NCBI GenBank assembly: GCA_026417995.1
Contig: JAOACF010000003.1
Location: 1,737-65,736 of the forward strand
Reading direction: 5' to 3'
Length of the DNA: 64,000 bases
Source of the DNA: Negativicutes bacterium
GTDB lineage: Bacteria > Bacillota > Negativicutes > Sporomusales > JAOACF01
The notes under the pieces were generated by a model. The model searched no databases. It was given only the letters and a program-made list of their open reading frames with translations, and had not been told where the DNA came from. Each line of letters starts with the position of its first letter. Within the stretch, counting starts at the first letter, position 1. Positions 16,425 through 52,527 of this stretch are shown here, piece by piece. Position numbers and translations under genes: made by a program.

Positions 16425-17537
16425 ATGGCGCGCAAACACCGTATCCTGATAATAACTGCTTCGGTCGGCAGCGGACATACGCAGGCGGCGCTGGCAATTA
16501 AACAAGCTTTGAAAAAAGAGTACGGCCATAATGCCTCAATCGTTGACTTCTTGTCAGGCGGCGGCAGGTATATTGGCAAGGTGGTCAAGTCCACTTATTT
16601 TCAAGCGTTAAAGATTTTTCCGGAAATCTGGGATTATGTTTACCGGTACAGCAATGAACCGCGTTATGGCGACAAAATCAAGAGCGTACTGCAGCTGGCA
16701 TCGGAACGTTATATGCAGCGGATTATCCGCCGTTATTCGCCGGATGTTATTTTATTTACGCATCCTTTTCCCTGTGCGGCTGCGGCCGGCCTGAAAAAGG
16801 ATGGGGAGCTAGCCGCGCCGCTTATCGGCGTTGTAACCGACTATGCCGTTCACCGGCTATGGGAGTATCCCGAAATCGACCATTACTGCGTAGCTACTGA
16901 TGAGGCTGCGCAGGAACTTTTGAGCCAGGGATTTTCGCCTGCGGTAATTCATAATGTGGGCATTCCGGTGCGCGAGCCGTTTTGGGAAAGGCCGGACGTT
17001 TCGCCGCAGAAGGGCAATGTTCTGATTATGGGCGGAGGCATGGGTATGGGACTGACCGCTGAGGCCATCCGCGCCGTGAGCGGCATACCCGGTGTACAGA
17101 GCGTAAAAGCGGTTTGCGGCAGCAATTCCCGGCTTTATCAAATTTTGAAAGCGTCGGAAGCAAGGGTGTCCCGGCTTCATGTATACGGTTTTACGCAAAA
17201 AGTGCCGCAGCTTATGGCGGAGGCCGAACTTTTAGTTACCAAGCCGGGAGGCCTTACCGCCAGCGAGGCGCTGGCCCTGGGCCTGCCGATGGTGCTGATT
17301 GATGCCATTGGCGGACAGGAGGAAGATAACGCCGCTTTTCTGGTAGAGCGCGGCGCGGCACGGATTGCCCGCAGCATGGCGGAGCTGGAGATGCATGTCG
17401 CCGAGCTGTTGGCTGCGCCGGATACGCTGCAGGCTATGCGCCGGCAGGCGCAAAGCCTGGGAAAGCCGAAAGCCGCCCAAGCCGTGGCAGAAATTATTAT
17501 GCAGTCATTGACAGTAAAAGAGCGCCCGTTAGCTTAA
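16425..17537 (+). CDS. Glycosyltransferase family 28, MGDG-synthase/UgtP-like diacylglycerol glycosyltransferase
   Basis: Start trimmed to MARKHRILIITASVGSGHTQAA (SD GGAGGTG). C-terminal GT-B motif KPGGLTASEALALGLPMV. Confidence 0.75.
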   Translation: MARKHRILIITASVGSGHTQAALAIKQALKKEYGHNASIVDFLSGGGRYIGKVVKSTYFQALKIFPEIWDYVYRYSNEPRYGDKIKSVLQLASERYMQRIIRRYSPDVILFTHPFPCAAAAGLKKDGELAAPLIGVVTDYAVHRLWEYPEIDHYCVATDEAAQELLSQGFSPAVIHNVGIPVREPFWERPDVSPQKGNVLIMGGGMGMGLTAEAIRAVSGIPGVQSVKAVCGSNSRLYQILKASEARVSRLHVYGFTQKVPQLMAEAELLVTKPGGLTASEALALGLPMVLIDAIGGQEEDNAAFLVERGAARIARSMAELEMHVAELLAAPDTLQAMRRQAQSLGKPKAAQAVAEIIMQSLTVKERPLA

Positions 17538-17555
17538 CGGACGCTCTTTTACTGT
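17511..17555. terminator. 45-nt near-perfect palindrome spanning both stop codons of convergent genes (bidirectional terminator candidate)
   Basis: ACAGTAAAAGAGCGCCCGTTA-GCT-TAACGGACGCTCTTTTACTGT, 20 of 21 positions paired. TAA of the GT gene is at 17535-17537 and the metH stop (rc) is at 17529-17531. Confidence 0.6.
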
Positions 17556-19922
17556 CTTTATGTAATTTTTCGCGAGGCGGACGGCGGCGACTGCGTCCGG
17601 CGCATAGAGGTCGGCGCCGGACGAGCGGGCATATTCGGGCGTGAGCACTGCGCCGCCCACCATCACGCAGGGTCGGAGACCGGCTTGGCGCAGCGCAGCG
17701 ATAGTGCTGTCAATATAGGGAAGGGTGGTGGTCATGAGAGAGCACAAGCCGACAATATCGGGCTGATGTTCTTTTGCGGCTGCAACTACTTGCTCCGGGG
17801 CCACGTCTTTGCCCAGATCGATCACTTTAAAACCGCTGTTTTCCATAAGCGCGGCGACAATATTTTTGCCGAGATCATGAATATCGCCCTTAACGGTGGC
17901 CAGCAGCACTTTGCCGGCGTTTGCCGGTTGCCCGGCGGGGAGAAAACTGCGCAGAGCCTGGAACCCAATGCGCATGGTTTCGGCGGCCAGCATTACCTGC
18001 GGCAAGTAGCATCGGCCCGCGCCAAAGGCTTCGCCGACTTCATTCATTGCCTGGGTAAAGCCGTTTTCGACAATTGTCAGCGAATCCTTGCCGGAGTTAA
18101 GCGCCGCTTGCACAAGCGGCAGTACGGCTTCCTTGCCGCCTTTGACGACAATATCCCGGATTTGACCTATGATATCCGCAGAGTTAAGCGGCGCGGAAGA
18201 CTGCGGGCTGTGCGGCTGCCGGGCGGCATAGCGGGCGCTGTACCCTGCGCCGTTGGCGTCATGCCCTAATAGCGCGGCTGACGCTGCCAGCGCGTCTTGC
18301 ATAAGTTGGTCGAAAGGATTGAGAATGGGCGCATCCAGCCCCGCGGCGAGCGCCATGCCCAGAAACGCGCTGTTCATTATATCTCGGCGGGGTAAGCCGT
18401 AGGATATATTGCTTAATCCCATTACGGTGGGATAACCGAACATTTCACGATAGAGGCGGAGCGTCTTGAGCGTTTCCTGTCCGGCCGAGGCATCGGCGGC
18501 AACGGTGAGCACCAGCGGATCGAGCAGCAAATCGCCTGGCTTAAGTCCGGCGGCGAAAGCGGCGGCGATGATATCCGCGGCGACCGCGACGCGTTCGGCG
18601 GCTGTATGCGGTACGCCGCTGCCGGCAAGCGGCAGGCAGAGTACAGCAGCTCCATACTTTTTGGCGAGAGGCAAAAACTCCTCCAGTCGCTCCCGCTCGG
18701 CGCTGACCGAATTAATCAGCGCCCTGCCGGGATATGTTCGCAGCCCTGCCTCCAGCGCGGCGGCGTCGGTGGTGTCGATTGACAGCGGCACTTGCACCAG
18801 TACAGATAAATCGGCAACGGCTTGCTTCATCGCTTTGGCCTGGTCGATGCCGGGAACGCCCATATTCACGTCTAAAATCATGGCGCCTGCTTCGACCTGG
18901 GCCAGAGCTTCTTTTTTTACCTGGCTGAAATCATGGGAGCGGATGCTTTCTGCCAGTGCTTTCCGGCCGCTGGGATTTATTCTTTCGCCAATTACGGCGG
19001 TAGGGAAGCCCTGGCCAAGCCAGATGGTCTGCGTGCGGCTGGAGAGTCTGACGGCATGAGCGGGAGGTTCTGCCGGCACGGGCGGAAGATGGCCTGCGGC
19101 CGCCTGGCTTATTGCCCGAATGTGGGCAGGCGTCGTGCCGCAGCAGCCGCCTAAATAACCGGCGCCTGCCGCAATGAGCCGTGGAACCCATTCGGCCATT
19201 TCCGCCGGGCTCATCGGGAAAACGGTCTTCCCGTTGACTAATTGCGGCATGCCGGCATTGGGCTGAACGCTTACCGGTATCCGGACACTTTTGGCTAATG
19301 TTGCGATAACCGGCAGCAATTGGGCCGGACCGAGCGAACAATTCGCGCCGATAATGTCCGCGCCGAGCGCTTCTAGTGTGGTTGCGGCCGTCACGGCGTC
19401 CGTGCCGGTCAATGTGCGCCCATCGCCGCTAAATGACAGCTGGCAGACGACCGGGCGTTTGGATGCCGCTTTGGCGGCGAGAAGCGCGGCGCGCATTTCC
19501 TGGATATCAATAATCGTTTCAATGATCAGCATATCTACGCCCGCTTTATCCAGGGCGGCAATCTGTTCATAGTATATGTCATAGACTTCGTCAAACTCGA
19601 GGTCGCCCAGCGGGCTGATAAATTTGCCGGTTGGCCCGACAGAGCCGGCAATCAGCGCCCGTTCGCCGACTGCGCGCGCGGCCTTGACCCCGGCCTGGTT
19701 AATTGCTTCGACTTGTTTTTCCAAGCCGTAATGCGACAGCTTAATCCGGTTGGCGCCAAAGGTATTTGTTTCAATAATATGGGCCCCGGCCTCTAGATAA
19801 GCGCGATGGACGGCGCTTATCTTGGCGGGCTGTTCGAGGTTCCATAGTTCCGGGCACTGCCCGGCCGTCAGGCCGGCTTCCTGCAGCATCGTGCCCATTG
19901 CTCCGTCAAAGATGTAAATCAT
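17529..19922 (-). CDS. metH: Methionine synthase core (Hcy S-methyltransferase + pterin-binding + B12-binding domains), lacking the activation domain
   Basis: 797 aa. N-terminal IFDGAMGTMLQ, GGCCGTTP, and the cobalamin-binding DIHDLGKNIV region. Confidence 0.9.
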   Translation of the reverse strand: MIYIFDGAMGTMLQEAGLTAGQCPELWNLEQPAKISAVHRAYLEAGAHIIETNTFGANRIKLSHYGLEKQVEAINQAGVKAARAVGERALIAGSVGPTGKFISPLGDLEFDEVYDIYYEQIAALDKAGVDMLIIETIIDIQEMRAALLAAKAASKRPVVCQLSFSGDGRTLTGTDAVTAATTLEALGADIIGANCSLGPAQLLPVIATLAKSVRIPVSVQPNAGMPQLVNGKTVFPMSPAEMAEWVPRLIAAGAGYLGGCCGTTPAHIRAISQAAAGHLPPVPAEPPAHAVRLSSRTQTIWLGQGFPTAVIGERINPSGRKALAESIRSHDFSQVKKEALAQVEAGAMILDVNMGVPGIDQAKAMKQAVADLSVLVQVPLSIDTTDAAALEAGLRTYPGRALINSVSAERERLEEFLPLAKKYGAAVLCLPLAGSGVPHTAAERVAVAADIIAAAFAAGLKPGDLLLDPLVLTVAADASAGQETLKTLRLYREMFGYPTVMGLSNISYGLPRRDIMNSAFLGMALAAGLDAPILNPFDQLMQDALAASAALLGHDANGAGYSARYAARQPHSPQSSAPLNSADIIGQIRDIVVKGGKEAVLPLVQAALNSGKDSLTIVENGFTQAMNEVGEAFGAGRCYLPQVMLAAETMRIGFQALRSFLPAGQPANAGKVLLATVKGDIHDLGKNIVAALMENSGFKVIDLGKDVAPEQVVAAAKEHQPDIVGLCSLMTTTLPYIDSTIAALRQAGLRPCVMVGGAVLTPEYARSSGADLYAPDAVAAVRLAKNYIKTVKERPLS

Positions 19923-20605
19923 TGTTCAGGCTCCTTTCTGGCGATACAGCGCCGGTGCGGGCAGTTTTGGCAGTTTCGCGGCTGCCGCTGCGGCGAAGCA
20001 GCTGCCGGGATTGTGGGATATAACCCGATGACGGCGGTAATTGACTTGCGGGGTGTGAGCATGAGGGAGGCGGTTATATTCACGCCGATTTCGCCGGCAT
20101 GGGCAAGGCGCAGCATTTCCGGCTGGATGGATATTGCCCAATCGCCATAGCCCGGGCTAAACCGGGGGGTGGCGCCATATCCCTGCTGTGCCCCGTTATT
20201 TACAATCAGCCTTTCCAGACTATCTGCGACTTCTTCCACGGCGGCCGAGCCGGCGGCGTCCAGCAATAAGCCGCTCGTATATTCGCCTTTGCCAAACAGC
20301 GCCGCGGCGCGTTCCTCCACGCCAGGGCCGATTGTTGCGGCAAGTATGGCCACGCTGACGCAGCCCGCAAGATGGCGCCGAATATGCTGTCCTTCCAGTG
20401 TAACCGGCTGGCAGGAATGGATTTCGCCGCTTGCGCAGGAGTAATCGTACACTTGCCATATGCCCCGCGGTGAAGCCAGGCATTGCGCCTCAAGGCAGGC
20501 CGCGGCAACCAATTCGGCCGGAAAATCGCCGCTGTTTTTTAATCCGGCGTAGCGGGCCGTTTCCTTTGGATTTATCCGGCGGAGCGCCGCATTGTAAACC
20601 GGCAT
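19919..20605 (-). CDS. Stand-alone methionine synthase activation (AdoMet-binding) domain protein
   Basis: Start trimmed to MPVYNAALRRINPKETARYAGL (SD GGAGGG). 4-nt ATGA overlap with the metH start. Confidence 0.7.
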   Translation of the reverse strand: MPVYNAALRRINPKETARYAGLKNSGDFPAELVAAACLEAQCLASPRGIWQVYDYSCASGEIHSCQPVTLEGQHIRRHLAGCVSVAILAATIGPGVEERAAALFGKGEYTSGLLLDAAGSAAVEEVADSLERLIVNNGAQQGYGATPRFSPGYGDWAISIQPEMLRLAHAGEIGVNITASLMLTPRKSITAVIGLYPTIPAAASPQRQPRNCQNCPHRRCIARKEPEQ

Positions 20606-20671
20606 AATTCCCTCCATAAACAAAATGCCCATCCCTCGGCAGGGGGGCGACGATCTTACATAATTGTCAAT

Positions 20672-20701
20672 ACTATAGCGCAGTATTTTATTGCCTGTCA
20701 A
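20672..20701 (-). promoter_or_regulatory. sigmaA-type promoter of the metH operon
   Basis: Minus strand: TTGACA (rc of 20696-20701), 18 nt spacer, TATAGT (rc of 20672-20677). Confidence 0.5.
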
Positions 20702-20837
20702 GACATAAGATTCCAATTATTATGTTAACTTTACAGCACTCTTTTTTACGTCCGACTTTATTATTCGCAGGAGATTATTATTTTAGTGTGGAATGTTTCC
20801 ATTTACTGATGCAAAGACTGGTTATGAGGTGAAATTT

Positions 20838-21599
20838 GTGGTTAAAGTTATTGCCATTGCCAATCAGAAAGGCGGGGTCGGCAAGACAACGACATCGGTT
20901 AACTTAAGCGCCTGCCTGGCTGAACTTGGCAGGAAGGTATTGTTGGTTGATATTGATCCCCAGGGTAACACTACCAGTGGTCTGGGAATAAATAAATCTA
21001 CCATTAAACGCTGTGTTTATGATGCTCTTGTTAACGATGTCCCGGTGGAATCGATTATTCTGCCGACGCAAGTGGACAACCTGTGGTTGTTGCCGGCCAC
21101 CATTCAACTGGCCGGAGCGGAAATCGAATTGGTATCGGTTATGTCGCGCGAAACGAAATTTAAACGGATGCTGGACAAAGTAAAGTATGCTTACGATTTT
21201 GTGATTATCGATTGTCCGCCGTCACTGGGGCTCTTGACGATAAATTCGCTGACTGCCGCCAATTCTGTCTTGGTGCCGATCCAATGTGAGTTTTACGCGC
21301 TGGAAGGATTATCTCAGCTCATGAACACTATCGCGCTGGTGCAAAAAAATCTCAACCCTGCCTTGTCGCTGGAGGGGGTTGTTCTCACTATGTTTGACGC
21401 TCGTACCAATTTGTCCATTCAAGTGGTGGATGAAGTGAAAAATCATTTCCGCAGCAAAGTGTATCAAACCATTATTCCCCGCAATGTCCGCTTAAGCGAG
21501 GCCCCCAGCCACGGACAGCCGGTGATTAAATACGACCCCAAATCAAAGGGGTCGGAAGTGTATTTCGACTTAGCCAAAGAGGTGATTGGTGATGAATAA
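20838..21599 (+). CDS. soj: Chromosome partitioning ATPase ParA/Soj
   Basis: GTG 20838 after GAGGTG. VIAIANQKGGVGKTTT deviant Walker A. Confidence 0.92.
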   Translation: MVKVIAIANQKGGVGKTTTSVNLSACLAELGRKVLLVDIDPQGNTTSGLGINKSTIKRCVYDALVNDVPVESIILPTQVDNLWLLPATIQLAGAEIELVSVMSRETKFKRMLDKVKYAYDFVIIDCPPSLGLLTINSLTAANSVLVPIQCEFYALEGLSQLMNTIALVQKNLNPALSLEGVVLTMFDARTNLSIQVVDEVKNHFRSKVYQTIIPRNVRLSEAPSHGQPVIKYDPKSKGSEVYFDLAKEVIGDE

Positions 21600-22485
21600 G
21601 CGTGGTCTGGGACGCGGCCTGAATGCAATTATCCCGACGGTAGTCGCGCAAGATGCTGAGGCAGCAAGCGAAATTGCCATTAGCGACATAGTGCCTAATC
21701 GATTTCAGCCCAGGCGGGTATTCGATCCCGAAAAACTGGCCGAGCTGGCCGATTCTATCAGGCAATACGGTGTGCTGCAGCCTGTCGTAGTGCGCAAGAC
21801 AGTAACGGGTTATGAGCTGGTTGCGGGGGAGCGCCGCTTGCGCGCGTCGCAGATGGCCGGGCGCAAAACCATCCCAGCGGTCATCCGCGAATATACCGAT
21901 GCGGAAATGACCGAGATCGCGCTGATTGAAAATCTTCAGCGACATGACCTCAACCCTATTGAAGAGGCAATGGCCTTTCGCAAGCTTATGACTGAATTTG
22001 GCCTTACGCAGGAAGAGGTGGCGATAAAGATTGGCCGCAGTCGGTCGCTGATAGCCAATATTGTGCGGATGCTCAATCTGCATCCGGCAGTGCAAGAACA
22101 TGTTTCACGTGGAACATTAACTATTGGTCAGGCACGGCCGCTTCTAGCGCTAGAGCAGGGAGAACAGCAGGTGGAAGCGGCCACAATGATCATCGAAGGC
22201 GACTTGTCTGCCCGGGATGCCGAAGAATTGGTGCGCCGGATGCTGGCGGCGCCCAAAAGCAAGCGCAAGGCCAAGGCGCAGGAGCGGCAAGAGGTTTTCC
22301 TGGCCGAAGCGGAGGATCGCCTAAAGCTCCTGCTGGGGGCCCAGGTCAAAATAAAACCGGGCAAACTAAAGAGTAAAATTGAAATCGAATTTAATTCAAT
22401 GGACGACATTGAGCGTCTGATTGAAACTTTAGCAGCACCGCTGCAGGCTGCTGCAACCAAGCCGGTCAAAGCGCTGATCGTGTAA
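21589..22485 (+). CDS. spo0J: Chromosome partitioning protein ParB/Spo0J
   Basis: MNKRGLGRGLNAIIP, GERRLRAS. The start overlaps the end of soj. Confidence 0.92.
   Translation: MMNKRGLGRGLNAIIPTVVAQDAEAASEIAISDIVPNRFQPRRVFDPEKLAELADSIRQYGVLQPVVVRKTVTGYELVAGERRLRASQMAGRKTIPAVIREYTDAEMTEIALIENLQRHDLNPIEEAMAFRKLMTEFGLTQEEVAIKIGRSRSLIANIVRMLNLHPAVQEHVSRGTLTIGQARPLLALEQGEQQVEAATMIIEGDLSARDAEELVRRMLAAPKSKRKAKAQERQEVFLAEAEDRLKLLLGAQVKIKPGKLKSKIEIEFNSMDDIERLIETLAAPLQAAATKPVKALIV
22101..22116. promoter_or_regulatory. parS: parS site inside spo0J (one mismatch)
   Basis: TGTTTCACGTGGAACA versus consensus TGTTNCACGTGAAACA. Confidence 0.75.
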
Positions 22486-22486
22486 T

Positions 22487-22502
22487 TGTTTCACGTGAAA
22501 CA
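22487..22502. promoter_or_regulatory. parS: Perfect parS site 2 nt after the spo0J stop
   Basis: TGTTTCACGTGAAACA, a perfect 16-bp palindrome. Confidence 0.9.
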
Positions 22503-22524
22503 CGCGTGGTGATGAGGTGGAATA

Positions 22525-23925
22525 GTGCGTATAGAAAGAGATTTGCTGGGAGAATATCCTGTTCCCCGGGATGCTTACTATGGTATACATACCGCAAGGG
22601 CACGGGATAATTTTAGGCTTACAGGCGCACCGGTTCATCCGCGATTAATAGCGGCGATTGCTTTGATCAAAAAGGCAGCGGCCGCTATTAATGCTGAACT
22701 GGGGTATCTTTCGCGGGATATTGCCGCTGCTATCAGTACCGCAGCAGATGAAATAAGGGCCGGTAAGTGGGCGGAGCAGTTTCCGGTTGATGCGCTGCAG
22801 GGCGGCGCCGGGACGTCTACCAACATGAATGTCAATGAAGTGATTGCCAATCGCGCTATTGAACTGCTTGGCGGTGAACGCGGCGACTATCGGTTGGTGC
22901 ATCCGGTCAACCATGTCAATATGCATCAGTCAACCAACGATGTTTATCCCACGGCGCTGCGCATTGCCGCCATCGAACTGCTGCAGCCGCTGAGCGCAAA
23001 TTGCGCCAGGCTTCAGGCGGCGCTGCAGGAAAAAGAAGCGGAGTTTGCCGATGTGATTAAGGTCGGACGAACCCAACTTCAGGACGCCGTGCCCATTATG
23101 CTGGGGCAGGAGTTCAGTGCGTACGCGCAAGCCATTGCGCGTGACCGCTGGCGGCTCTATAAAGTGGAAGAACGTCTGCGGCAGATTAACCTTGGCGGCA
23201 CAGCTGTGGGGACAGGATTAAACGCCGACCAAAAGTACATATATATGGTCAATGACCGCGTTAGGGAATATGCGCGACTGGGCTTGGCCAGAGCGGAGAA
23301 TATGATCGATATAACGCAAAATGCGGATGTATTTGTGGAAGTTTCCGGCTTACTCAAAGCCCTTGCGGTTAACCTGACGAAAATAGCTAACGACTTAAGA
23401 TTAATGTCATCCGGGCCGCGCGCCGGTTTTGGCGAAATACGGCTGCCCGAAATGCAGGCCGGATCGTCGATAATGCCCGGTAAGGTCAACCCGGTAATTC
23501 CGGAGGCCGTCAATCAGGCCGCTTATCATATTATGGCTTCCGATATGGCCGTAACCCTGGCGGCGCAGGCCGGACAACTGGAACTTAATGCTTTTCTGCC
23601 GCTGCTGGCGCATCACTTGCTGCACGGCATAGAAACGCTTACGCGAGCGGCAGAACTGTTGGCAGAGCGCTGCATCAGCGGGATTAGCGCCAACCGGGAA
23701 CACTGTCTGGCGCTGCTCAACGAGAGTTTGGCGGTGGCGGCGGCGCTAACCCCTTATCTCGGATATGACCTGGCGAGCGAAGTGGCACATGCCGCGAGCG
23801 AGCAAGGAAGATCGGTAACCGATGTTGTTTTGGCCAAAGAGCTGCTGCCCGAAGTACGGTTGCGGGCGATTACTAATCCGGTTGCGATGACAAGACCGGG
23901 CATACATGAGCATAAGCAAAGTTAA
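22525..23925 (+). CDS. aspA: Aspartate ammonia-lyase
   Basis: QGGAGTSTNMNVNEV and GSSIMPGKVNPVIPE are aspartase-type rather than fumarase-type signatures. GTG start after GAGGTGG. Confidence 0.88.
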   Translation: MRIERDLLGEYPVPRDAYYGIHTARARDNFRLTGAPVHPRLIAAIALIKKAAAAINAELGYLSRDIAAAISTAADEIRAGKWAEQFPVDALQGGAGTSTNMNVNEVIANRAIELLGGERGDYRLVHPVNHVNMHQSTNDVYPTALRIAAIELLQPLSANCARLQAALQEKEAEFADVIKVGRTQLQDAVPIMLGQEFSAYAQAIARDRWRLYKVEERLRQINLGGTAVGTGLNADQKYIYMVNDRVREYARLGLARAENMIDITQNADVFVEVSGLLKALAVNLTKIANDLRLMSSGPRAGFGEIRLPEMQAGSSIMPGKVNPVIPEAVNQAAYHIMASDMAVTLAAQAGQLELNAFLPLLAHHLLHGIETLTRAAELLAERCISGISANREHCLALLNESLAVAAALTPYLGYDLASEVAHAASEQGRSVTDVVLAKELLPEVRLRAITNPVAMTRPGIHEHKQS

Positions 23926-23939
23926 CGGGAGGAAAGGAC

Positions 23940-25163
23940 ATGCAAGAGACGCCGAAAGGCTCGCGCCTGCATATTGCCATCTTCGGACGGCGCAATGCCG
24001 GAAAGTCGAGCTTAATCAATGCTTTGACCAACCAGGATATAGCGCTTGTTTCCCCTGTGCCGGGCACAACGACCGATCCGGTGTACAAAGCGATGGAAAT
24101 ATTGCCGGTGGGGCCGGTAATGCTGATAGATACGGCCGGTATTGACGACGAGGGCGAACTTGGACAGCTCAGGGTGGAGCGAACGCTGCAGGTCCTTGCT
24201 AAAACTGATCTGGCGATTTTGCTGCTTGAACCGGAAAAAGGGGTCAGCGAGTTTGAGCTGTCGCTGGCACAGGCAATACGCCGACGCACGCTGCCGCTCA
24301 TCGCCGCCGTCAATAAAACCGACCTAGTCCAGCCGGAAAAGGAAAAAATGTCCGAATGGGCGGCAGAACTGGGAGTGCAGTTGCTGCCAGTAAGCGCCAA
24401 AACAGGCGCGGGAATCGAAGAATTAAAGCGCTTAATTATCCGGAATGCGCCTGATGACTGGGAGGGACCGCCGATAATCGGCGATTTGCTGCTGCCCGGC
24501 GACACCGTCGTGCTGGTGGTCCCAATCGATTTGGCCGCACCCAAAGGGCGGCTGATACTGCCGCAAGTCCAGACCATTCGCGATATACTAGATCATGACG
24601 CTTACTGCGTGGTAACCAAAGAGCGGGAGCTGCGGGCGGTTTTGGCGAACCTAAACCAGCCGCCCCGTATCGTGGTCACTGACTCGCAGGAGTTTCTTAA
24701 AGTGGCGGCCGATACGCCGCCTGAGGTGCAGTTAACGTCATTTTCGATCCTGATGGCGCGGCACAAAGCGGATTTGCCCACGCTTGCCGCCGGCGCGAAA
24801 GCTATCAGCAGCCTTAAACCCGGCGACAGGGTGCTGATTGCCGAGGGATGCACCCATCACCGGCAGGCAGATGATATTGGGCAGGTAAAAATACCCCGCT
24901 GGCTGCGGCAACAAGTGGGCGGCGATTTGCAATTCGATTGGGTTTCCGGCGGCAGCTTTCCCCAGGATCTGACACCGTATAAGCTCATTGTGCACTGCGG
25001 CGCATGCATGCTTAACCGGCGGGAGATGCTGCATCGGTTATCGGTAGCGCGGGAGCAAGGGGTGCCAATCGTGAATTACGGTGTTTTAATCGCGCATGTG
25101 CACGGCATTTTGCACCGCGCCCTGGCACCATTTCCGCTGGCCCGCATGGCGCTTGAGGAGTAG
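23940..25163 (+). CDS. hydF: [FeFe]-hydrogenase H-cluster maturation GTPase HydF
   Basis: GRRNAGKSSLINAL, DTAGID, and the C-terminal cluster-binding EGCTHH...HCGACM (CxH...HCxxC). Confidence 0.88.
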   Translation: MQETPKGSRLHIAIFGRRNAGKSSLINALTNQDIALVSPVPGTTTDPVYKAMEILPVGPVMLIDTAGIDDEGELGQLRVERTLQVLAKTDLAILLLEPEKGVSEFELSLAQAIRRRTLPLIAAVNKTDLVQPEKEKMSEWAAELGVQLLPVSAKTGAGIEELKRLIIRNAPDDWEGPPIIGDLLLPGDTVVLVVPIDLAAPKGRLILPQVQTIRDILDHDAYCVVTKERELRAVLANLNQPPRIVVTDSQEFLKVAADTPPEVQLTSFSILMARHKADLPTLAAGAKAISSLKPGDRVLIAEGCTHHRQADDIGQVKIPRWLRQQVGGDLQFDWVSGGSFPQDLTPYKLIVHCGACMLNRREMLHRLSVAREQGVPIVNYGVLIAHVHGILHRALAPFPLARMALEE

Positions 25164-25250
25164 GCCGGTCCGGAAATGTCCGGAAGAGGCAATGCAGATA
25201 AATAATTGGTAGCACCAGAGATACTCACCTAGGAGACGGGGAATACGAAC

Positions 25251-26402
25251 GTGATTTATCTTGATAACGCGGCAACGACCTGGCCCAAACCCGAAAGTGT
25301 TTATCAGGCGGTCGAGCAGTACATGCGGCACCTGGGCGCAAGCCCCGGCCGAGGAGGGCACAGCAAGGCGCGCGCGGCCGGGTATATACTATATGAGGCA
25401 CGGGAACTGCTGGCGCAATTATTTGGCATTCAAGACCCCAACCGAATAAGTTTTATGCACAATGCCACTGACGCAATCAATACCGCGTTATTTGGTCTGC
25501 TGTCTGCCGGCGATACCGTGGTTACCACGGCGATGGAGCACAATGCGGTGGCCAGGCCGCTCCGCGCGCTGGAAAAGCAAGGCGTTGTCGTGCGGGTGGC
25601 AAAATGCGGCAGGGACGGCAGGGTCGATCTGGCAGACATGGAGCGCTTGCTAGCCGCTGGCGCCAAAGCAGTTGTCATGACTCATGCCTCCAATGTTACC
25701 GGTACGCTGATGCCGGTGCAGGCTGCCGGAGAATTAGCGCGGCGGCACGGTGCGGTTATGATTGTCGATGCCGCGCAAACAGCCGGGATAGAGCCTATCG
25801 ACGTGGCAAGCATGGCAATCGATGTCTTGGCGTTCAGCGGGCATAAAGGCCTTCTGGGGCCGCAAGGCACCGGCGGGCTTTATGTAAGACCGGGCCTTAA
25901 CATAAAACCGCTTCGCTTTGGCGGTACCGGCAGTTTGTCGGAAAGCGACCGGCAGCCGGATTTTTTGCCGGATTGCCTGGAAAGCGGCACGGCAAATACG
26001 CCGGGAATCGCCGGCTTGGCGGCCGGCGTGCGGTTTATTCTGGCTACGGGTATAGAAGCGATTTGCGCCTGGGAAAGGCGGCTTGCCGGGATGCTTTTTC
26101 AGGGGCTGGCCGAAATTCCGGGCGTGTCGGTATTGGGGCCGACTGACCCCAATTTACGCACGGCGGTAGTCGCTTTTACGCTGGGCAATATGGATAGCTC
26201 GCTGCTCAGTTACCGGTTGGACGAGGAGTACGGGATTATCAGCCGGGGCGGACTGCACTGCGCGCCTTGGGCCCATCAAACGCTGGGAACAACGGCGACA
26301 GGCGCGGTGCGGTTAAGTCCGGGCTGGTTTACAACCGAAGCGGAGATTGCGGCGGCGCTCAAGGCAGTGCGCGCTCTTGCCCGGGAGGGGGTGAGCACAT
26401 GA
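25251..26402 (+). CDS. Class V aminotransferase, cysteine desulfurase/selenocysteine lyase family
   Basis: MIYLDNAATTWPKP, SGHKGLLGPQGTGGLY (PLP lysine), GGLHCAPWAH. Confidence 0.85.
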   Translation: MIYLDNAATTWPKPESVYQAVEQYMRHLGASPGRGGHSKARAAGYILYEARELLAQLFGIQDPNRISFMHNATDAINTALFGLLSAGDTVVTTAMEHNAVARPLRALEKQGVVVRVAKCGRDGRVDLADMERLLAAGAKAVVMTHASNVTGTLMPVQAAGELARRHGAVMIVDAAQTAGIEPIDVASMAIDVLAFSGHKGLLGPQGTGGLYVRPGLNIKPLRFGGTGSLSESDRQPDFLPDCLESGTANTPGIAGLAAGVRFILATGIEAICAWERRLAGMLFQGLAEIPGVSVLGPTDPNLRTAVVAFTLGNMDSSLLSYRLDEEYGIISRGGLHCAPWAHQTLGTTATGAVRLSPGWFTTEAEIAAALKAVRALAREGVST

Positions 26403-27082
26403 AGGGAACGATAATGAATGCCGCCGCCGTGATCGCGGGCTGCGGCGTGGGGTTGATTCTCCGCCGGGGTATTCCGGCGCGTTATCAGCAGACCCTGATG
26501 CAAGGGTTGGGGCTGGCTGTTTTTTTGATAGGTTTACAAATGGCCGTAAAGACGCAGAATATATTGGTGGTAATCATCAGTATGTCGGTAGGCGCCCTTG
26601 CCGGAGAAGCGCTGGATATTGACCGGGCTCTGAAGCGTTTCAGCGAAAATATTGCGGACAAGCTTGGCGGCAACCACGGCAAAGTGGCAGAAGGCTTTAT
26701 GACGGCAAGTCTGATGTTCTGTATCGGCGCCATGGCGGTAGTGGGATCCATTCAGGATGGCCTCACCGGAGATACCAGCACGCTGTATGCCAAATCGCTG
26801 CTAGATGCGATTGTTTCGGTAGTCCTGACTTCCAGTTTGGGTATCGGCGTGGGCATATCCAGTGTGGCGGTTCTTGTCTACCAGGGAACCATTACGCTCC
26901 TGGCGGGATTTTTCAGTACGCTGCTTTCAGAGGCGGCAGTAAAGGAACTGACTGCGGTGGGCGGCTTGCTGATCATGGGAATTGGCATGATGATGCTGGA
27001 AATTAAAACAATTAAAGTCGCCAATCTACTGCCGGCAATACCTGCGGCAGCAGTCATCACATATATAGTAAGCTTAGTGTAG
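26399..27082 (+). CDS. DUF554 family membrane protein
   Basis: Start trimmed to MKGTIMNAAAVIAGCGVG. ATGA overlap with the preceding stop. Polytopic hydrophobic profile. Confidence 0.7.
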   Translation: MKGTIMNAAAVIAGCGVGLILRRGIPARYQQTLMQGLGLAVFLIGLQMAVKTQNILVVIISMSVGALAGEALDIDRALKRFSENIADKLGGNHGKVAEGFMTASLMFCIGAMAVVGSIQDGLTGDTSTLYAKSLLDAIVSVVLTSSLGIGVGISSVAVLVYQGTITLLAGFFSTLLSEAAVKELTAVGGLLIMGIGMMMLEIKTIKVANLLPAIPAAAVITYIVSLV

Positions 27083-27098
27083 GAAGGATGTATAAACT

Positions 27099-27617
27099 GT
27101 GGACTTACTAACGCAAGCCAATGCGATCATTATGGGCAATCTCCAGTATATATTGCTGGCTATGACCGCTATGATTCTTCTGGCACTAATCGTGTTTATC
27201 AATATTAATCTGAAATTAAACCGCTTGAATAAGCGTTACCGTACTATGATGCAGGGGATGGATGGGCGAAACCTGGAAGATTTGCTGCTTACCCACATTG
27301 AAGATGTCAGGCATGCCCTGAAAAAAGTGGATGCATTGGCGAAAGAGCAGCAGCGGCTGGCGGCCATAAGCGCGACTTGCATCCAGCGGGTGGGTATCGT
27401 GCGTTTCAACGCTTTCGATGATACCGGCAGCGACCTCAGTTTTGCCGTGGCCATGCTGGACGCACAAAATAACGGCGTGGTCGTTTCCAGCATTTTCGGG
27501 CGCAGCGAATCCCGCACCTATGCAAAACCGATCGTTGCGGGCCAGTCCGCCTACTTTCTGACCGAAGAGGAAAGACAAGCCTTGTCGAAAGCACAGGAAA
27601 AATGTTCTAAACCGTAG
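27099..27617 (+). CDS. DUF4446 family protein
   Basis: N-terminal TM helix, ...VGIVRFNAFDDTGSDLSFAVAMLD...GVVVSSIFGR. Confidence 0.7.
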   Translation: MDLLTQANAIIMGNLQYILLAMTAMILLALIVFININLKLNRLNKRYRTMMQGMDGRNLEDLLLTHIEDVRHALKKVDALAKEQQRLAAISATCIQRVGIVRFNAFDDTGSDLSFAVAMLDAQNNGVVVSSIFGRSESRTYAKPIVAGQSAYFLTEEERQALSKAQEKCSKP

Positions 27618-30678: not shown

Positions 30679-32076
30679 ATGGCAGAGTTTAAGGCAGCAC
30701 TGCGAGAAATTCCGGCGATTGACAAACTGCTTCAGGCCGCTGCCGGCGATGATGGTTTCGCCGGATTGGAGCGCAAAGCGGTCACTGAGGCCTTGCGCGC
30801 GGCGGTGGACGAAGCACGCAAGGCAATTATGAGCGGCGGCGATAGGGATGTATCCATTAAGGGAATATTGGATGCGGCCAGGCGCAAGCTGGCAGTGATG
30901 CTGCGGCCAACGCTGCGGCGAGTGATCAATGCTACCGGCGTCGTGCTGCATACCAACCTCGGCCGCGCTCCTTTAAGCGCGCGCGCCCAGGCGTCGGTAG
31001 TCGAAGTCATGAACGGATACAGCACGCTGGAATATGATCTGGTAACAGGGGAGAGAGGCAGCCGTTACTCGCACATACGCGAGCTCATTTGCCGTTTGAC
31101 CGGCGCGGAAGACGCGCTTGCGGTAAACAACAATGCGGCGGCGGTTGTCCTGGCGGTTTCGGCCGTCGGCGCGGGGCGCGAAGTAATTGTCAGCCGGGGC
31201 GAACTGGTAGAAGTAGGCGGCAGCTTTCGCATTCCCGACGTAATAAGCCAAAGCGGCGCCCGCCTGGTGGAAGTGGGAACAACCAATAAAACACATATTG
31301 CCGACTACCGGGCAGCCATTACGCCGGACACGGCAGCGCTGCTGAAGGTGCATACCAGCAATTACCGGATCGTTGGTTTTACCGCCCAGCCGGACGCCGC
31401 CGAACTGGTTGCCCTAGGCGAGGAGTTCGGTCTGCCGGTGATTGAAGACCTGGGCAGCGGCACGTTGTTGCCAGTAGAGGCGGGAGACTGGCGCGAACCT
31501 TCGGTTGCGGAACGGGTGGCGGCTGGTTTCAGCATCGTAACCTTTAGCGGCGATAAGCTGTTCGGCGCGGGGCAGGCCGGGATTATCGCCGGTAAAAAGG
31601 TTTACATTGATAAAATGAAAAAACATCCGCTGCTTAGGGCCTTCCGTATTGATAAGCTTTCGCTCGCCTCGCTGGAAGGGACGCTTATAGACTATGCCTG
31701 GGGCAACCCAGTATGTGATATCCCGGTGCAGCGCATGCTAAGAGCTGACCCGGAAGTTCTTAAAACCAGTGCGGCAAGGCTTGCCGCCATACTAAAGGAA
31801 CAGGCGCCGGATTGGTCCGTTCGGGTTACGCCTACGGCCTCCCCTGCCGGCGGCGGCTCGCTGCCGGCCGTCAATCTGGCTGGCTATGGCGTCAGTGTGT
31901 CGCCGCGGACGGTGTCGGCCGCGGCCGCGGAGATAATGCTGCGCAAGCGGGATGTTCCGGTGATTGCCAGAATACAGGATAACCGGCTGTTGTTTGATGT
32001 CCGCTGCCTGCGGGAGGAAGACTTTGCGGAGATTGGCCTGGCCTGCGCAGAAATAGCGAAAGGGGAAAGCATGTGA
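30679..32076 (+). CDS. selA: L-seryl-tRNA(Sec) selenium transferase
   Basis: VINATGVVLHTNLGRAPLS, FSGDKLFGAGQAGII (PLP lysine). Confidence 0.93.
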   Translation: MAEFKAALREIPAIDKLLQAAAGDDGFAGLERKAVTEALRAAVDEARKAIMSGGDRDVSIKGILDAARRKLAVMLRPTLRRVINATGVVLHTNLGRAPLSARAQASVVEVMNGYSTLEYDLVTGERGSRYSHIRELICRLTGAEDALAVNNNAAAVVLAVSAVGAGREVIVSRGELVEVGGSFRIPDVISQSGARLVEVGTTNKTHIADYRAAITPDTAALLKVHTSNYRIVGFTAQPDAAELVALGEEFGLPVIEDLGSGTLLPVEAGDWREPSVAERVAAGFSIVTFSGDKLFGAGQAGIIAGKKVYIDKMKKHPLLRAFRIDKLSLASLEGTLIDYAWGNPVCDIPVQRMLRADPEVLKTSAARLAAILKEQAPDWSVRVTPTASPAGGGSLPAVNLAGYGVSVSPRTVSAAAAEIMLRKRDVPVIARIQDNRLLFDVRCLREEDFAEIGLACAEIAKGESM

Positions 32077-33950
32077 AGTATATTATTATCGGCACCGCCG
32101 GACATGTGGATCATGGAAAATCGGCCCTGATCAAGGCGCTGACCGGCACAGACACCGACAGGCTTAAAGAGGAAAAAGAACGGGGCATATCCATTGATCT
32201 TGGTTTTGCCTCGCTCAGTCTGTCAGAGGACATTGCCGCCGGTATTGTCGATGTGCCGGGACATGAACGGTTTCTGAAAAATATGCTCGCCGGCACCGGC
32301 GGCATTGATCTTGCCTTGTTGACAATCGCCGCCGATGAAGGTGTCATGCCGCAGACGCGTGAACATTTAGCCATGCTGCAGCTTTATGGCGTCAAGCACG
32401 GCGTGGTGGTTATCAACAAAATTGACAAGGTTGATCAGGAATGGCTGGCTCTTGTCAGGGAAGAAGCGGCGGATGTTCTGCGGGATACATTTTTGGCGAA
32501 CGCGCCGGTTTGTTATGTTTCGGCAATTACCGGCGCAGGCTTGCCAGAGCTGAGAAATGTTCTCGCCGCCACTGCCCGCCAAATTTCACCGCGCGACGCC
32601 AGGGCGCCTTTTCGCATGTGGCTTGACCGGGTATTTTCGGTTAAAGGCCACGGTGCGGTTGTGACCGGCTCGGTTCTCAGCGGCCAAGCCAAAGTCGGCG
32701 ATACGCTGACGCTCCTCCCGTCCGGCAAGCCGGTCAAAGTGCGCGGCCTGGAAACGCACGGCCGCAAAGTAGATGTGATTTACGCCGGGCAGCGTGCTGC
32801 TTTCAACTTGAGCGGCGTTGACAAGGAAGAAATGGGGCGCGGCATGGCCCTGACCGCAGCCGGACGCGGGCAGGTTGCCAGGGTCTGGGATGTTGCGGTC
32901 GAGTGGCGGCAAAAGATGGAGAACGTCCGGGGGCGCCTGCATTTGGGGACAGGGGAATTTATCGGTAGAATTTACAAACCGCAGCGCAGTCCGGCAGGGC
33001 AATACCGACTGGCGCTGGAGGAGCCTATAGGCGCAGGTGCGGGCGATAAGGGAATTTTGCGATTGTATTCGCCGCAGCACTTGCTGGGAGGAGTGGTGAT
33101 GCTGGGGGCGGTCCTGGGACAAGGGCGGGAATATCCAAATCGCCTGCCGCTTGCCGCCGCGCTGGACAAAGCTGACGGGCGTGCGGCGGCGGCCGCCATT
33201 CTATCCTGGCAAAAGCGGCCGGTGACGGCGGATGAAATCAGGCAGGAGGCAGGCTATTTGCCTGATGACATTCTGGAAAGCGGCATTGCCGGGCTTGTTG
33301 CCGACGGGCAAGTGATCAAACTGGAACGGTTTTATCTGACAAAAGTGCTGCTGACGACGCTGGGCAGCCATCTGTTTAGCATGCTTGACAGTTACCACCG
33401 TCTTAATCCCAGTCGGTTCGGCGCGCCGAAAGAGGAGCTGAGGCAAAAGCTGGGCATTGAGGACAAAGTGTTTGAAGTGCTGCTGCAGCATTTTATCCAG
33501 GATAACCAGATCACTGCCCAGGGAGCGGAGGTGGCGCTACCCGCTCATGCCGGCAAGCATCAGGACTGGCAGCGCGATATAACGGGCGAAGTGGAACGCG
33601 CGCTCGCGGGCAGCGGCCTGATTGATGTCAGTCCGGCGCTGCTGGCAGAAAAGCTGGGCTTGTCGCCGGCTAACGCCCAAAAAGTTTGGGGGGCGCTAGT
33701 CAAGGAAAAGGTAATCATTCGCCTGGGAGAAATTCATGTATACAGAAAAACAATTCAAAACATTGTGGAGCTTATACAACGTCATTTCCGGAGTCATCCA
33801 GGCATTACCGTGGCGGAACTGCGTGATATGCTTAACACCACCCGCAAATTTGCTTTGCCGGTGCTTGAGTATATGGATGTGAATAAATATACAGTAAGAG
33901 ACGGCGACATACGAAGGCCTGGGCCGAAAATAAGGGATTTGTCAGAATAA
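32073..33950 (+). CDS. selB: Selenocysteine-specific elongation factor
   Basis: IIGTAGHVDHGKSALIKALTG, DVPGHERF, and a long winged-helix C-terminus. GTGA overlap with selA. Confidence 0.93.
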   Translation: MKYIIIGTAGHVDHGKSALIKALTGTDTDRLKEEKERGISIDLGFASLSLSEDIAAGIVDVPGHERFLKNMLAGTGGIDLALLTIAADEGVMPQTREHLAMLQLYGVKHGVVVINKIDKVDQEWLALVREEAADVLRDTFLANAPVCYVSAITGAGLPELRNVLAATARQISPRDARAPFRMWLDRVFSVKGHGAVVTGSVLSGQAKVGDTLTLLPSGKPVKVRGLETHGRKVDVIYAGQRAAFNLSGVDKEEMGRGMALTAAGRGQVARVWDVAVEWRQKMENVRGRLHLGTGEFIGRIYKPQRSPAGQYRLALEEPIGAGAGDKGILRLYSPQHLLGGVVMLGAVLGQGREYPNRLPLAAALDKADGRAAAAAILSWQKRPVTADEIRQEAGYLPDDILESGIAGLVADGQVIKLERFYLTKVLLTTLGSHLFSMLDSYHRLNPSRFGAPKEELRQKLGIEDKVFEVLLQHFIQDNQITAQGAEVALPAHAGKHQDWQRDITGEVERALAGSGLIDVSPALLAEKLGLSPANAQKVWGALVKEKVIIRLGEIHVYRKTIQNIVELIQRHFRSHPGITVAELRDMLNTTRKFALPVLEYMDVNKYTVRDGDIRRPGPKIRDLSE

Positions 33951-49405: not shown

Positions 49406-50434
49406 ATGGTAAAACTTACTGCCTATACCCAGCGCGGCGGCTGAGCGTCAAAGATAGGGCCGGGCGCCCTGGCGCACGTGCTGCGCCAATTGCCAAAACC
49501 TGCTGACCCCAATTTGCTTGTGGGCATAGATACCGTCGATGATGCGGGCGTGTACCGCATTCAGGATAACTTGGCCTTAATCCAAACAGTTGATTTTTTT
49601 ACGCCTATTGTCGATGATCCTTATACATTCGGCCAGATTGCCGCCGCTAACAGCTTAAGCGATGTCTATGCCATGGGCGGTAAGCCGCTAACGGCGATGA
49701 ACATCGTCGGGTTTCCCCTGGGTTGTCTTGCTGGCGAAGTGCTGCGAGATATTCTTAGGGGCGGCTATGATAAGGTTGCCGAGGCCGGCGCGGTGATCGT
49801 CGGCGGGCATACTGTCGAGGATCAGGAACCGAAGTATGGTCTAAGTGTAACCGGCATCGTTCACCCGGATGAAGTTTGGGCGAACGCGGGAGCGCGTCCC
49901 GGCGATGTATTGGTACTGGCCAAACCCTTGGGAACAGGCATCCTGGCGACGGCAGCCAAAGCCGACATGTACGCGGCAGGCTGGGCGGCAGCAATTAAAA
50001 GCATGAGTACGCTCAATAAAATGGCGGCAGAAGTATTCAGGCAATATGATGTGCATGCCTGTACCGATATTACCGGTTTTGGCCTCTTAGGCCATTTGTC
50101 GGAAATGGCCGGGGCCAGCCGGGTTAAGGTCCGAGTTCAAAGTTTAGCGCTGCCGCTCCTGCCGTATGCCGCTGAGGCCGCAGCCATGGGGCTGGTGCCC
50201 GGCGGCGCCTACGCCAACCGGGAGTATCTAGCGAAAGTCAGTTTTGCCGCTGCCGTGCCTGAGAATATCCGGGATATCTGCTATGATCCCCAAACCTCGG
50301 GAGGGCTCTTGGTCAGCCTGCCATCACAGCAAGGCAAGGCGGCGGTTGAGGCGCTCCGGGCAGCGGGAATAGAAGACGCTGCCGTAATCGGCGAAGTTAC
50401 AGCAACAGGCGAGGGGGAGATTTATGTCTACTGA
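49406..50434 (+). CDS. selD: Selenide, water dikinase SelD with in-frame UGA (selenocysteine) at codon 13
   Basis: Own translation from ATG 49406: MVKLTAYTQRGG-U-ASKIGPGALAHVLRQLPKP.... TGA at 49442-49444 sits where SelD has its catalytic Cys/Sec. The track only shows the part from 49478. Confidence 0.92.
49442..49487 (+). promoter_or_regulatory. Sec UGA plus candidate SECIS stem-loops
   Basis: AGGGC-CGGGC-GCCCT (49456-49470) and GGCGCA-CGTGC-TGCGCC (49471-49487), 14-45 nt downstream of the UGA. Confidence 0.5.
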
Positions 50435-51008
50435 AATTGATGCCCGCGGCTTGGCCTGCCCGCAGCCCGTCATTCAAGCGAAAAAAGCGCTTGACAGCAT
50501 CGAGCAGGGCAGCGTGACCGTGATTGTGGACAATGCCGTGGCCAAAGAAAATGTGGCGAAGCTGGCTAGGGCCAACCGGTGCGGCCTCAGTATTGAAGAA
50601 AAAGACGGCCACTTTTATCTGCGTCTGACGAAAGACAGCGGCCGGCAAACGCCGGACGGCATACCGGCGGCAAGGACTGTTTATCTGATCGCCAAGAATA
50701 CGCTGGGACATGGCAATGATGAATTAGGCGCCGTGTTAATGAAGTCGTTCTTTTTTACGTTGCAGGCAGGTGACAGCGTTCCCGCAGCGGTCATGTTTAT
50801 CAATGCGGGGGTTGAACTGGCCGTTGACAGTTCGCCCGTATTAGACCACCTCAAGGCGCTAAGCGCCAAAGGAACGGAGATCATGTCCTGCGGCACTTGC
50901 CTGGATTACTTTGGCCTCAAGGAGCGCCTGGCCATCGGCGAGATCAGCAATATGTACGATATTTTAGCGCGGCTTGAGGGCGCGGGGAAAGCGATTACGC
51001 TGTCATGA
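50424..51008 (+). CDS. yedF: Selenium metabolism protein YedF (TusA/SirA-like N-domain plus DsrE-like C-domain)
   Basis: IDARGLACPQPVIQAKKAL (CPxP motif). 11-nt overlap with selD. Confidence 0.85.
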   Translation: MSTEIDARGLACPQPVIQAKKALDSIEQGSVTVIVDNAVAKENVAKLARANRCGLSIEEKDGHFYLRLTKDSGRQTPDGIPAARTVYLIAKNTLGHGNDELGAVLMKSFFFTLQAGDSVPAAVMFINAGVELAVDSSPVLDHLKALSAKGTEIMSCGTCLDYFGLKERLAIGEISNMYDILARLEGAGKAITLS

Positions 51009-51277
51009 CAAGACAGTATGACCGGCTGCTTTCGTTTGTATCGGTGCACCACGCTATCCGAGCGGAGAAACTGTTAGCCGGGGAAGGAATAAAGGTCATG
51101 CCACTGCCAACGCCCCGCGAGATTGCCATAAGCTGCGGGCAGTGCCTATTGCTTCGCTCGGGAGAAGAGGCAAGGGCGCTTGCCGTTTTGAAGACCGCCG
51201 GCGTTGAGTGGTCAAAGCTCTACAGCCGAGATGAAACAGGCCGCGCTTACGAAAAACTGGCCGAATACGAGGGATAG
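51005..51277 (+). CDS. DUF3343 protein (putative Se/S carrier)
   Basis: 90 aa, LLSFVSVHHAIRAEKLL...PTPREIAISCGQCL. ATGA overlap with yedF. Confidence 0.8.
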   Translation: MTRQYDRLLSFVSVHHAIRAEKLLAGEGIKVMPLPTPREIAISCGQCLLLRSGEEARALAVLKTAGVEWSKLYSRDETGRAYEKLAEYEG

Positions 51278-52408: not shown

Positions 52409-52427
52409 AACGCTATAGTAAAAATCG

Positions 52428-52527
52428 CAATACAGGACTGGCGGATCAGTGGAGTTAACCACGTGGACTGTATTGTTGGAAAGCCGACCGCCTGGGCGCA
52501 TTTTGAATTTTGCCCAGGCGGTTTTTA
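52428..52527 (+). promoter_or_regulatory. ZTP riboswitch (pfl motif) with terminator
   Basis: P1 CAATACAG/CTGTATTG (8 bp). GACTGGCGG. P2 GTGG-AGTTAA-CCAC. P3 TTGG-AAAG-CCGA. Conserved CCGCCTGGGC (52488-52497), whose CCGCC pairs with GGCGG (pseudoknot). Terminator GACCGCCTGGGC/GCCCAGGCGGT plus T5. Confidence 0.85.

Follow-up and report, generated by a model that had tools for sequence, protein, structure and literature searches.

Within a 64,000-nucleotide stretch of DNA (the window) from the origin-proximal region of a Sporomusaceae-type Negativicutes metagenome-assembled genome (GenBank assembly GCA_026417995.1, contig JAOACF010000003.1), four genes—aspA, encoding an aspartate ammonia-lyase; hydF, encoding a maturation protein of [FeFe]-hydrogenase; a gene for a pyridoxal phosphate (PLP) enzyme of the cysteine desulfurase/selenocysteine lyase family; and a gene for a DUF554 membrane protein—follow one another immediately after parB. 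A first-pass annotation of the sequence had suggested that these genes form a single inserted module, in which the aspartase and the PLP enzyme could be dedicated suppliers for assembly of the hydrogenase H-cluster on HydF, with DUF554 as a further partner. In this paper, we ask what holds these four neighbors together. Our best explanation, to which we give a probability of roughly 0.6, is that the 4.6-kb stretch consists of two functional units, the aspA-hydF pair and a selenium-type PLP enzyme, together with DUF554, all standing head to tail in a co-directional array, and that it is not one supply module for the H-cluster.

The arrangement itself is not in dispute, since every feature that the first-pass annotation described is present in the sequence: a parS site, then aspA, a 14-nt gap (cgggaggaaaggac) bearing a GGAGG Shine-Dalgarno site, hydF, a gap of 87 nt, the PLP gene, and an ATGA in which the DUF554 start codon at 26399 overlaps the PLP-gene TGA at 26400-26402. 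The reported lack of hydE, hydG, and hydrogenase structural genes was also borne out, with only weak ferredoxin-domain matches when HydE, HydG, and HydA representatives were compared with the whole 64 kb.

Which of these neighbors does hydF keep elsewhere? With a 20-sequence HydF alignment as the query, we retrieved 80 hydF loci from 80 species (L006-L085) of the Bacillota, Planctomycetota, Armatimonadota, Kiritimatiellia, Bacteroidota, Myxococcota, and others, in which HydF is 53-76% identical to that of the window. An aspA-like gene lies within 10 kb of hydF in 41 of the 80 loci, is adjacent to it (<300 nt) in 36, and stands directly upstream on the same strand in 30; hydE or hydG is found within 10 kb in 45. 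At the same distance, enzymes of the TIGR01977 type, the type to which the window PLP enzyme belongs, occur in none of the 80 loci and DUF554 in one, from Massilibacillus (Negativicutes). Unbiased clustering of the hydF neighbors returned HydE/HydG, AspA, HydA, NuoF-like, NuoE-like, and TM1266 proteins as recurrent families, and among them no TIGR01977 enzyme, no DUF554, and no other recurrent family. The only desulfurases near hydF were of the NifS type (L027 and L045), and by a rough estimate, two such occurrences are about what chance would provide. A second survey, centered on the PLP enzyme and made with an alignment of its homologues as the query, gave 80 metagenomic loci with enzymes of 47-67% identity; hydF adjoins the enzyme in two of them, one Sporomusaceae-like (L091) and one from a different lineage (L168). 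The enrichment around hydF that a dedicated module should leave behind is, then, found for aspA and is lacking for the PLP enzyme and DUF554, and the proposal that these last two are dedicated partners of hydF does not survive the comparison.

The aspA-hydF part of the locus is a widespread and already published pairing that behaves as a cassette across many genomic contexts. Pagnier et al. (2024, J Biol Chem, PMC11736057) reported that 79% of the hydF genes that they deemed authentic have ammonia-lyase genes nearby and, by electron nuclear double resonance, observed that E. coli AspA given 15N-aspartate puts 15N into the dithiomethylamine (DTMA) bridge of the H-cluster in a defined maturation system; the 2012 Pelobacter genome paper had located aspA between hydG and hydF. 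The suggestion that aspartase ammonia goes into the azadithiolate (DTMA) ligand is, therefore, supported both by our counts and by that labeling, and it is not new. What the window shares with the published linkage is an aspartase directly upstream of hydF on the same strand, a 14-nt gap, and intact active-site motifs. It differs in having no hydE, hydG, or hydA in 64 kb and in the place of the pair at the chromosome origin, with parB/parS on one side and DUF4446 on the other, where we have seen it only in Negativicutes loci. Moreover, the native AspA shares only 45% identity with the E. coli enzyme of the assay (the GRTQLQDAVP motif is identical in the two), and the role that we assign to it here is a putative one.

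Isolated aspA-hydF pairs are common, because in 16 of the 41 aspA-positive loci neither hydE nor hydG is found within 10 kb of hydF. The same 16 loci bear on how hydF genes are counted: Pagnier et al. (PMC11736057) accepted as authentic only those with an adjacent hyd gene, a criterion that undercounts and would drop many genuine hydF genes. In Paenibacillus wynnii (L018, 7324-11233), two hydF-like genes flank aspA; their products are 44% and 58% identical to HydF of the window.

It might be argued that the pairing has nothing to do with ammonia and that aspA stands by hydF for metabolic co-regulation, so that aspartate fermentation or fumarate production would keep step with hydrogen metabolism, as has been proposed for Pelobacter carbinolicus. 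The Pelobacter genome paper reads the aspA among its hyd genes in just this way; the maturation assay used E. coli AspA only and no hyd-linked AspA (PMC11736057); and ammonium is normally plentiful in cells. However, aspA is found in many phyla specifically by hydF, mostly directly upstream, rather than by hydA, hydE, or hydG; the association holds in the 16 loci that have neither hydE nor hydG nearby; and the 15N of aspartate does reach the DTMA ligand through AspA in vitro (PMC11736057). We consider co-regulation a distinctly improbable account of the pair.

The two proteins carry the sequence features expected of their families. AspA scores 680.7 bits against the aspartate ammonia-lyase model NF008909 (cutoff 510), far above its score on the class II fumarase model (460.5) and below the cutoff of the stricter equivalog TIGR00839 (573.3 vs. 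681.2). It aligns end to end with AspB of Bacillus YM55-1 (1J3U, E = 8e-146), the SS loop GSSIMPGKVNP is intact, and the GGAGTSTNMN and QSTND motifs also align with those of AspB. HydF scores 591.8 bits against TIGR03918 (cutoff 325.55) and contains both the HydF_dimer and HydF_tetramer domains (PF18128 and PF18133). Its GTPase P-loop and the cluster-binding CxH...HCxxC residues are kept: among 68 HydF sequences, G21, K22, C304, C353, and C356 do not vary and H306 is conserved in at least 90%, and the window protein has all six. If AspA acts here as E. coli AspA does in vitro, aspartate would be converted to fumarate and NH4+, and the ammonium would enter aminomethyl-lipoyl-H-protein by way of the glycine-cleavage T-protein and provide the bridgehead nitrogen when the dithiomethylamine ligand is built on HydF. 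The hydE, hydG, and hydrogenase genes would lie elsewhere in the genome.

The PLP enzyme appears to belong to a different system. An ordinary group II NifS-like enzyme, it matches TIGR01977 (the "EF2568" family) with 455.1 bits, well over the cutoff of 377, and its translation carries the group II RxGxHCA motif (as RGGLHCA, with the catalytic Cys) and an SGHK with the PLP-binding Lys. Across 18 homologues, there is no variation at R332, G334, C337, A338, H198, or K199, and conservation at H336 reaches at least 90%. A characterized member of the family, SclA of Enterococcus faecalis, is a selenocysteine lyase that prefers selenocysteine and is encoded in a selD-containing operon, and Lin et al. 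(2015, PMC5322559) linked a "Sec lyase family" with YedE, YedF, DUF3343, and SelD while noting that DUF3343 is not selenium specific. The selenium-linked members share 118 alignment columns with conservation of 90% or more; the Sporomusaceae clade keeps 96 of these and has three fixed changes, all of them conservative. In a neighbor-joining tree, which carries no support values, the Sporomusaceae enzymes that adjoin hydF group as a single clade inside the TIGR01977-type family. We also considered that the enzyme might have diverged and become neofunctionalized, and we rejected the idea, because merely three conservative fixed differences are found at family-conserved positions. Homologues linked to selD, yedE, or yedF score 464-488 bits against TIGR01977, and with hidden Markov model (HMM) scores alike and so few fixed differences, the window enzyme is indistinguishable in sequence from its selenium-linked relatives.

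The company that the enzyme keeps in other genomes points the same way. When the neighbors in the 80 enzyme-centered loci were clustered, YedF (the TusA-DsrE fusion, TIGR03527) was found beside the homologues in 17 loci, the putative selenium transporter YedE (TIGR04112) in 15, SelD in 10, and the DUF3343 "Se/S carrier" in 6, with more DUF3343 found by HMM search; DUF3343 is the most consistent partner of the family. Of the 38 loci in which each flank extends for at least 1.5 kb, 24 have selD, yedE, yedF, or DUF3343 within 3 kb, and 14 have no selenium or sulfur-relay neighbor. One locus (L139, 8030-9388) encodes a single protein of 452 aa in which a TIGR01977-type PLP enzyme is followed by a C-terminal DUF3343 domain, a fusion that supports a direct partnership of enzyme and carrier.

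The window has such genes, and they lack the enzyme. A selD-yedF-DUF3343 operon, its genes joined by 4-nt ATGA-type overlaps, lies 23 kb from the PLP gene, with no TIGR01977 PLP enzyme beside it, and selA-selB lies about 4 kb from the PLP gene. An in-frame TGA at 49443-49445 falls within the N-terminal GGU-ASK motif of selD, as read from the sequence (the mechanical open reading frame call begins only at 49478), and because of it, we take SelD to be a selenoprotein itself. The same enzyme-less selD operon occurs in a related locus (L171), and a similar genome has the enzyme after hydF (L172). Besides selD, yedF, and DUF3343, which it has in common with the published selenium set (PMC5322559), the window carries selA and selB. 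Its PLP enzyme shares with SclA and its family the RxGxHCA motif and the PLP-binding Lys, and its HMM score profile matches that of homologues linked to selD, yedE, or yedF. The enzyme differs from the Sec lyase family in following hydF rather than adjoining selD-yedF-DUF3343 and in having as its membrane-protein neighbor, joined by a stop/start overlap, DUF554 and not the YedE of other lineages.

The simplest reading of these sequences would be that the enzyme next to hydF is the selenium-trait (or sulfur-relay) PLP enzyme of this genome, parked elsewhere in the origin-proximal region. That the enzyme belongs to the selenium trait had been mentioned by the first-pass annotation as an alternative; with 24 of 38 homologue loci carrying selenium or sulfur-relay genes and with a window selD operon that has no enzyme of its own, it is the better supported of the two. 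Judging from gene context in other lineages, the enzyme would load its active-site Cys with selenium or sulfur drawn from selenocysteine or cysteine and pass it to the YedF/DUF3343/SelD relay. The genes of that relay lie 23 kb downstream with no PLP enzyme beside them, and the relay would serve selA-selB. The position of the gene after hydF would then be lineage-specific synteny without functional coupling.

Must the enzyme have a selenium role at all? It could be a general-purpose cysteine desulfurase for Fe-S clusters or thio-cofactors, with its position an accident of origin-proximal synteny. Its nearest solved structures are cysteine desulfurases of the SufS/CsdB type (E ~1e-49), and as noted, neighbors from selenium or sulfur relays are lacking in 14 of the 38 well-flanked loci, and DUF3343 is not confined to selenium (PMC5322559). 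In other lineages, moreover, the enzyme is found directly between parB and DUF4446 without hydF, aspA, or DUF554 (L104, 5169-9660; L138, 5399-9711) or near parAB (L111). Nonetheless, 24 of the 38 loci do have SelD, YedE, YedF, or DUF3343 next door, the characterized SclA prefers selenocysteine, and the window selD operon is without the enzyme that accompanies such operons elsewhere. A general-purpose desulfurase therefore seems to us an unlikely description of this gene.

The locus has its own history among the relatives of the window. In every Sporomusaceae-type locus examined, a frame of parA-parB, a variable slot, DUF4446, and an M23 peptidase is kept, and most loci run on via bactofilin to DUF1256. 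The slot holds aspA-hydF-PLP-DUF554 in the window, in Sporomusa termitida (L001), in Methylomusa (L005), and in L086, L087, and L172; hydF-PLP-DUF554, with no aspA, in Thermosinus (L003); hydF-PLP, with neither aspA nor DUF554, in L088; aspA-hydF-DUF554, with no PLP gene, in Massilibacillus (L007), Pelosinus (L089), and Dendrosporobacter (L090); and aspA-hydF, with neither PLP gene nor DUF554, in L006. Only hydF is constant, and aspA, the PLP gene, and DUF554 come and go independently. The juxtaposition is not a matter of chance, for it recurs with variations in every Sporomusaceae-type locus retrieved. The position after parB is not unique to the Sporomusaceae, because L104 and L138 also have the enzyme there; since it sits there without hydF and since aspA-hydF is known from dozens of unrelated settings, an aspA-hydF cassette may have arrived next to an enzyme that already occupied the place after parB. 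The notion of an inserted module holds in part: aspA-hydF does act as a cassette in many contexts, but the PLP gene can sit between parB and DUF4446 with no hydF at all.

Several observations sit uneasily with two separate units, and we gather them here. The window enzyme falls short of the selenocysteine lyase model built on SclA (NF040779; 381.8 bits vs. a cutoff of 525), although homologues linked to selD, yedE, or yedF do so likewise (384-421 bits). Every homologue of at least 59% identity with an examined context directly follows hydF. The spacing between hydF and the PLP gene in the Sporomusaceae is tight (overlaps of 17 and 4 nt; gaps of 11, 13, 16, 35, and 87 nt; and one of 303 nt), which suggests co-transcription. 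The local association of the PLP gene with selA-selB is imperfect: among Sporomusaceae-type loci with the PLP gene, selA-selB (or selA) is at the site in six and absent in two (L086 and L088), and among those without it, selA-selB (or selA) is present in one (L006, selA) and absent in three, a distribution that is only suggestive. Finally, in L168 (2499-9146), where alone outside the Sporomusaceae clade hydF and the PLP gene were found side by side, hydG, a DUF3343::hydE fusion, aspA, hydF, and a TIGR01977 PLP gene stand in a row. HydE proteins of 437-443 aa with an N-terminal DUF3343 are also encoded directly upstream of hydF in Alkalithermobacter (L023, 8695-10008) and Tepidibacter (L028, 8692-10023), and we found no mention of a DUF3343::HydE fusion in the literature searched. 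The L168 row and these fusions leave a small residual case for a link between a sulfur/selenium relay and Hyd maturation.

The rival that the tight spacing, the close homologues after hydF, the L168 row, and the fusions favor is one in which a TIGR01977 desulfurase was recruited to [FeFe]-hydrogenase maturation in the Sporomusaceae and the L168 lineage, perhaps together with DUF3343-type carriers and DUF554. The recruited enzyme would give persulfide sulfur to the [4Fe-4S] clusters of HydF, HydE, or HydG or feed HydE via its DUF3343 domain. To these points may be added that hydF and the PLP gene are tight or overlapping in eight of nine Sporomusaceae-type loci and that the fusion of carrier to HydE has its counterpart in the fusion of PLP enzyme to carrier in L139. 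Yet the enzyme is missing from all 80 of the hydF loci across phyla, and hydF from all but 2 of the 80 enzyme-centered ones; Pelosinus, Dendrosporobacter, Massilibacillus, and L006 retain aspA-hydF in the slot without the enzyme; the enzyme shows no sequence divergence from the selenium-linked members of its family; and the whole array is co-directional and tightly packed, a long run of housekeeping genes in which close spacing is common. The chemistry does not call for it either: no cysteine desulfurase is among the components of the defined, lysate-free maturation system, which needs none, and the HydG synthon provides the bridging sulfurs through its cysteine ligand, as summarized in PMC11736057. 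We considered and rejected the idea that the PLP enzyme donates these sulfurs, as it conflicts with this cysteine-synthon route. Taken with its arguments on both sides, recruitment strikes us as doubtful, at odds of several to one against.

A bolder version, fainter again in our judgment, would have the enzyme act with DUF3343 carriers, some of them fused to the HydE N-terminus, to provide HydE or HydF with persulfide sulfur or, conceivably, with selenium, and with DUF554 perhaps importing a needed ion. If it were true, there would be a selenium or sulfur delivery step that is absent from current defined maturation schemes.

DUF554 is probably a small-solute or ion transporter outside any conserved hyd or sel system. 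The window protein matches PF04474 with E = 3.9e-78 and 262.3 bits (gathering score 25.1) over profile positions 2-219 of 220, and like YqgA of E. coli and YdfK of B. subtilis, with which it shares this full-length match, it is predicted to be a polytopic all-helical membrane protein. Its AlphaFold model (predicted local distance difference test score 75.7, predicted template modeling score 0.74) finds its best match in the Protein Data Bank (PDB) in the ZIP transporter BbZIP, a weak resemblance over the full length (Foldseek E = 0.014, template modeling score ~0.5, 17-21% identity). Within the functionally uncharacterized DUF554/YqgA/YdfK family, the resemblance has no sequence support: a search of PDB sequences with the DUF554 profile returned none, there is no weak match to the Pfam Zip family either, and a literature search on DUF554 gave nothing functional. 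DUF554 is found in 2 of the 80 enzyme-centered loci and in 1 of the 80 hydF loci, all of them Sporomusaceae-type or Negativicutes, and it occurs in the slot without the PLP enzyme as well. Outside that lineage, it is unlinked to either hydF or the PLP enzyme.

The coordinates of these genes and of their setting are collected in the table. 

Features of the aspA-hydF-PLP-DUF554 locus, its origin-proximal surroundings, and the selenium genes of the window
Feature	Positions	Strand	Basis or remark
parA	20793-21599	+	co-directional array; precedes parB
parB/spo0J	21586..22485	+	Pfam ParB_N, HTH_ParB, ParB_C; TIGR00180
parS within parB, TGTTCCACGTGAAACA	22101..22116		consensus match on reverse strand
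parS, TGTTTCACGTGAAACA	22487..22502		exact; 1 base past parB stop at 22485
aspA, putative aspartate ammonia-lyase, hydF-linked type	22525..23925	+	NF008909
hydF, predicted [FeFe]-hydrogenase H-cluster maturation GTPase and scaffold	23940..25163	+	TIGR03918
Group II NifS-like PLP enzyme (class V), cysteine desulfurase/selenocysteine lyase family	25251..26402	+	TIGR01977
DUF554 membrane protein (YqgA/YdfK family)	26399..27082	+	PF04474
DUF4446	27099..27617	+	PF14584; neighbor after variable slot, kept in all Sporomusaceae-type loci
selA-selB (selenocysteine synthase, Sec-specific elongation factor)	30679..33950	+	Pfam SelA; GTP_EFTU and SelB winged-helix
selD-yedF-DUF3343 operon	49407..51277	+	SelD TIGR00476, YedF TIGR03527, DUF3343 open reading frame
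selD	49407-50434	+	TIGR00476, 368.6 bits
yedF	50424-51008	+	TIGR03527, 211.3 bits
DUF3343 open reading frame	51005-51277	+	

A motif scan for the 16-bp parS consensus (TGTTNCACGTGAAACA) gave exact matches at the two sites listed and none in shuffled sequence; the site inside parB sits 386 bp upstream of the one that follows it. Downstream of DUF554 come DUF4446, an M23 peptidase, bactofilin, a DUF1256 gene on the opposite strand, selA-selB, and a glutamate-synthase-like cluster. A promoter and terminator scan of 20.5-30.7 kb returned sites no more numerous than in shuffled sequence and, from parB to DUF4446, no convincing terminator. The array resembles the noc-soj-spo0J-(yyaB-like)-yyaC array of the Bacillota (we take its genes to be the counterparts of those so named in B. 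subtilis) in having a noc-like parB (~13.0-13.9 kb), parA, parB with parS, DUF4446, and an opposite-strand DUF1256 of the yyaC type, an order kept across the Sporomusaceae loci. It differs in two additions: aspA-hydF-PLP-DUF554 between parB and DUF4446 and a metH-like pair between the noc-like gene and parA. This pair (minus strand, 17529-20716) is kept in all Sporomusaceae loci examined and consists of a MetH-like protein of 797 aa, with homocysteine S-methyltransferase, pterin-binding, and B12-binding domains, and a partner of 265 aa with no Pfam match.

Scans for Rfam families and tRNAs gave no match within or close to aspA-hydF-PLP-DUF554. Their sole match was a ZMP/ZTP riboswitch at 52.4 kb (52424-52504; 60.2 bits vs. 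a gathering score of 39), which stands at the start of an open reading frame of 786 aa; in L171, the syntenic counterpart of that frame codes for a glycyl radical enzyme resembling pyruvate formate-lyase, and the gene for its activase comes next.

What, then, does the locus tell us? It offers a further example of two published associations, that of an aspartase with HydF and that of TIGR01977 "Sec lyase" enzymes with the selenium trait, and it cautions that neighbors in a conserved origin-proximal array should not be taken as one pathway. The DUF3343::HydE fusions and the L168 operon add that, in some organisms, a sulfur or selenium carrier may take part in assembly of the H-cluster.

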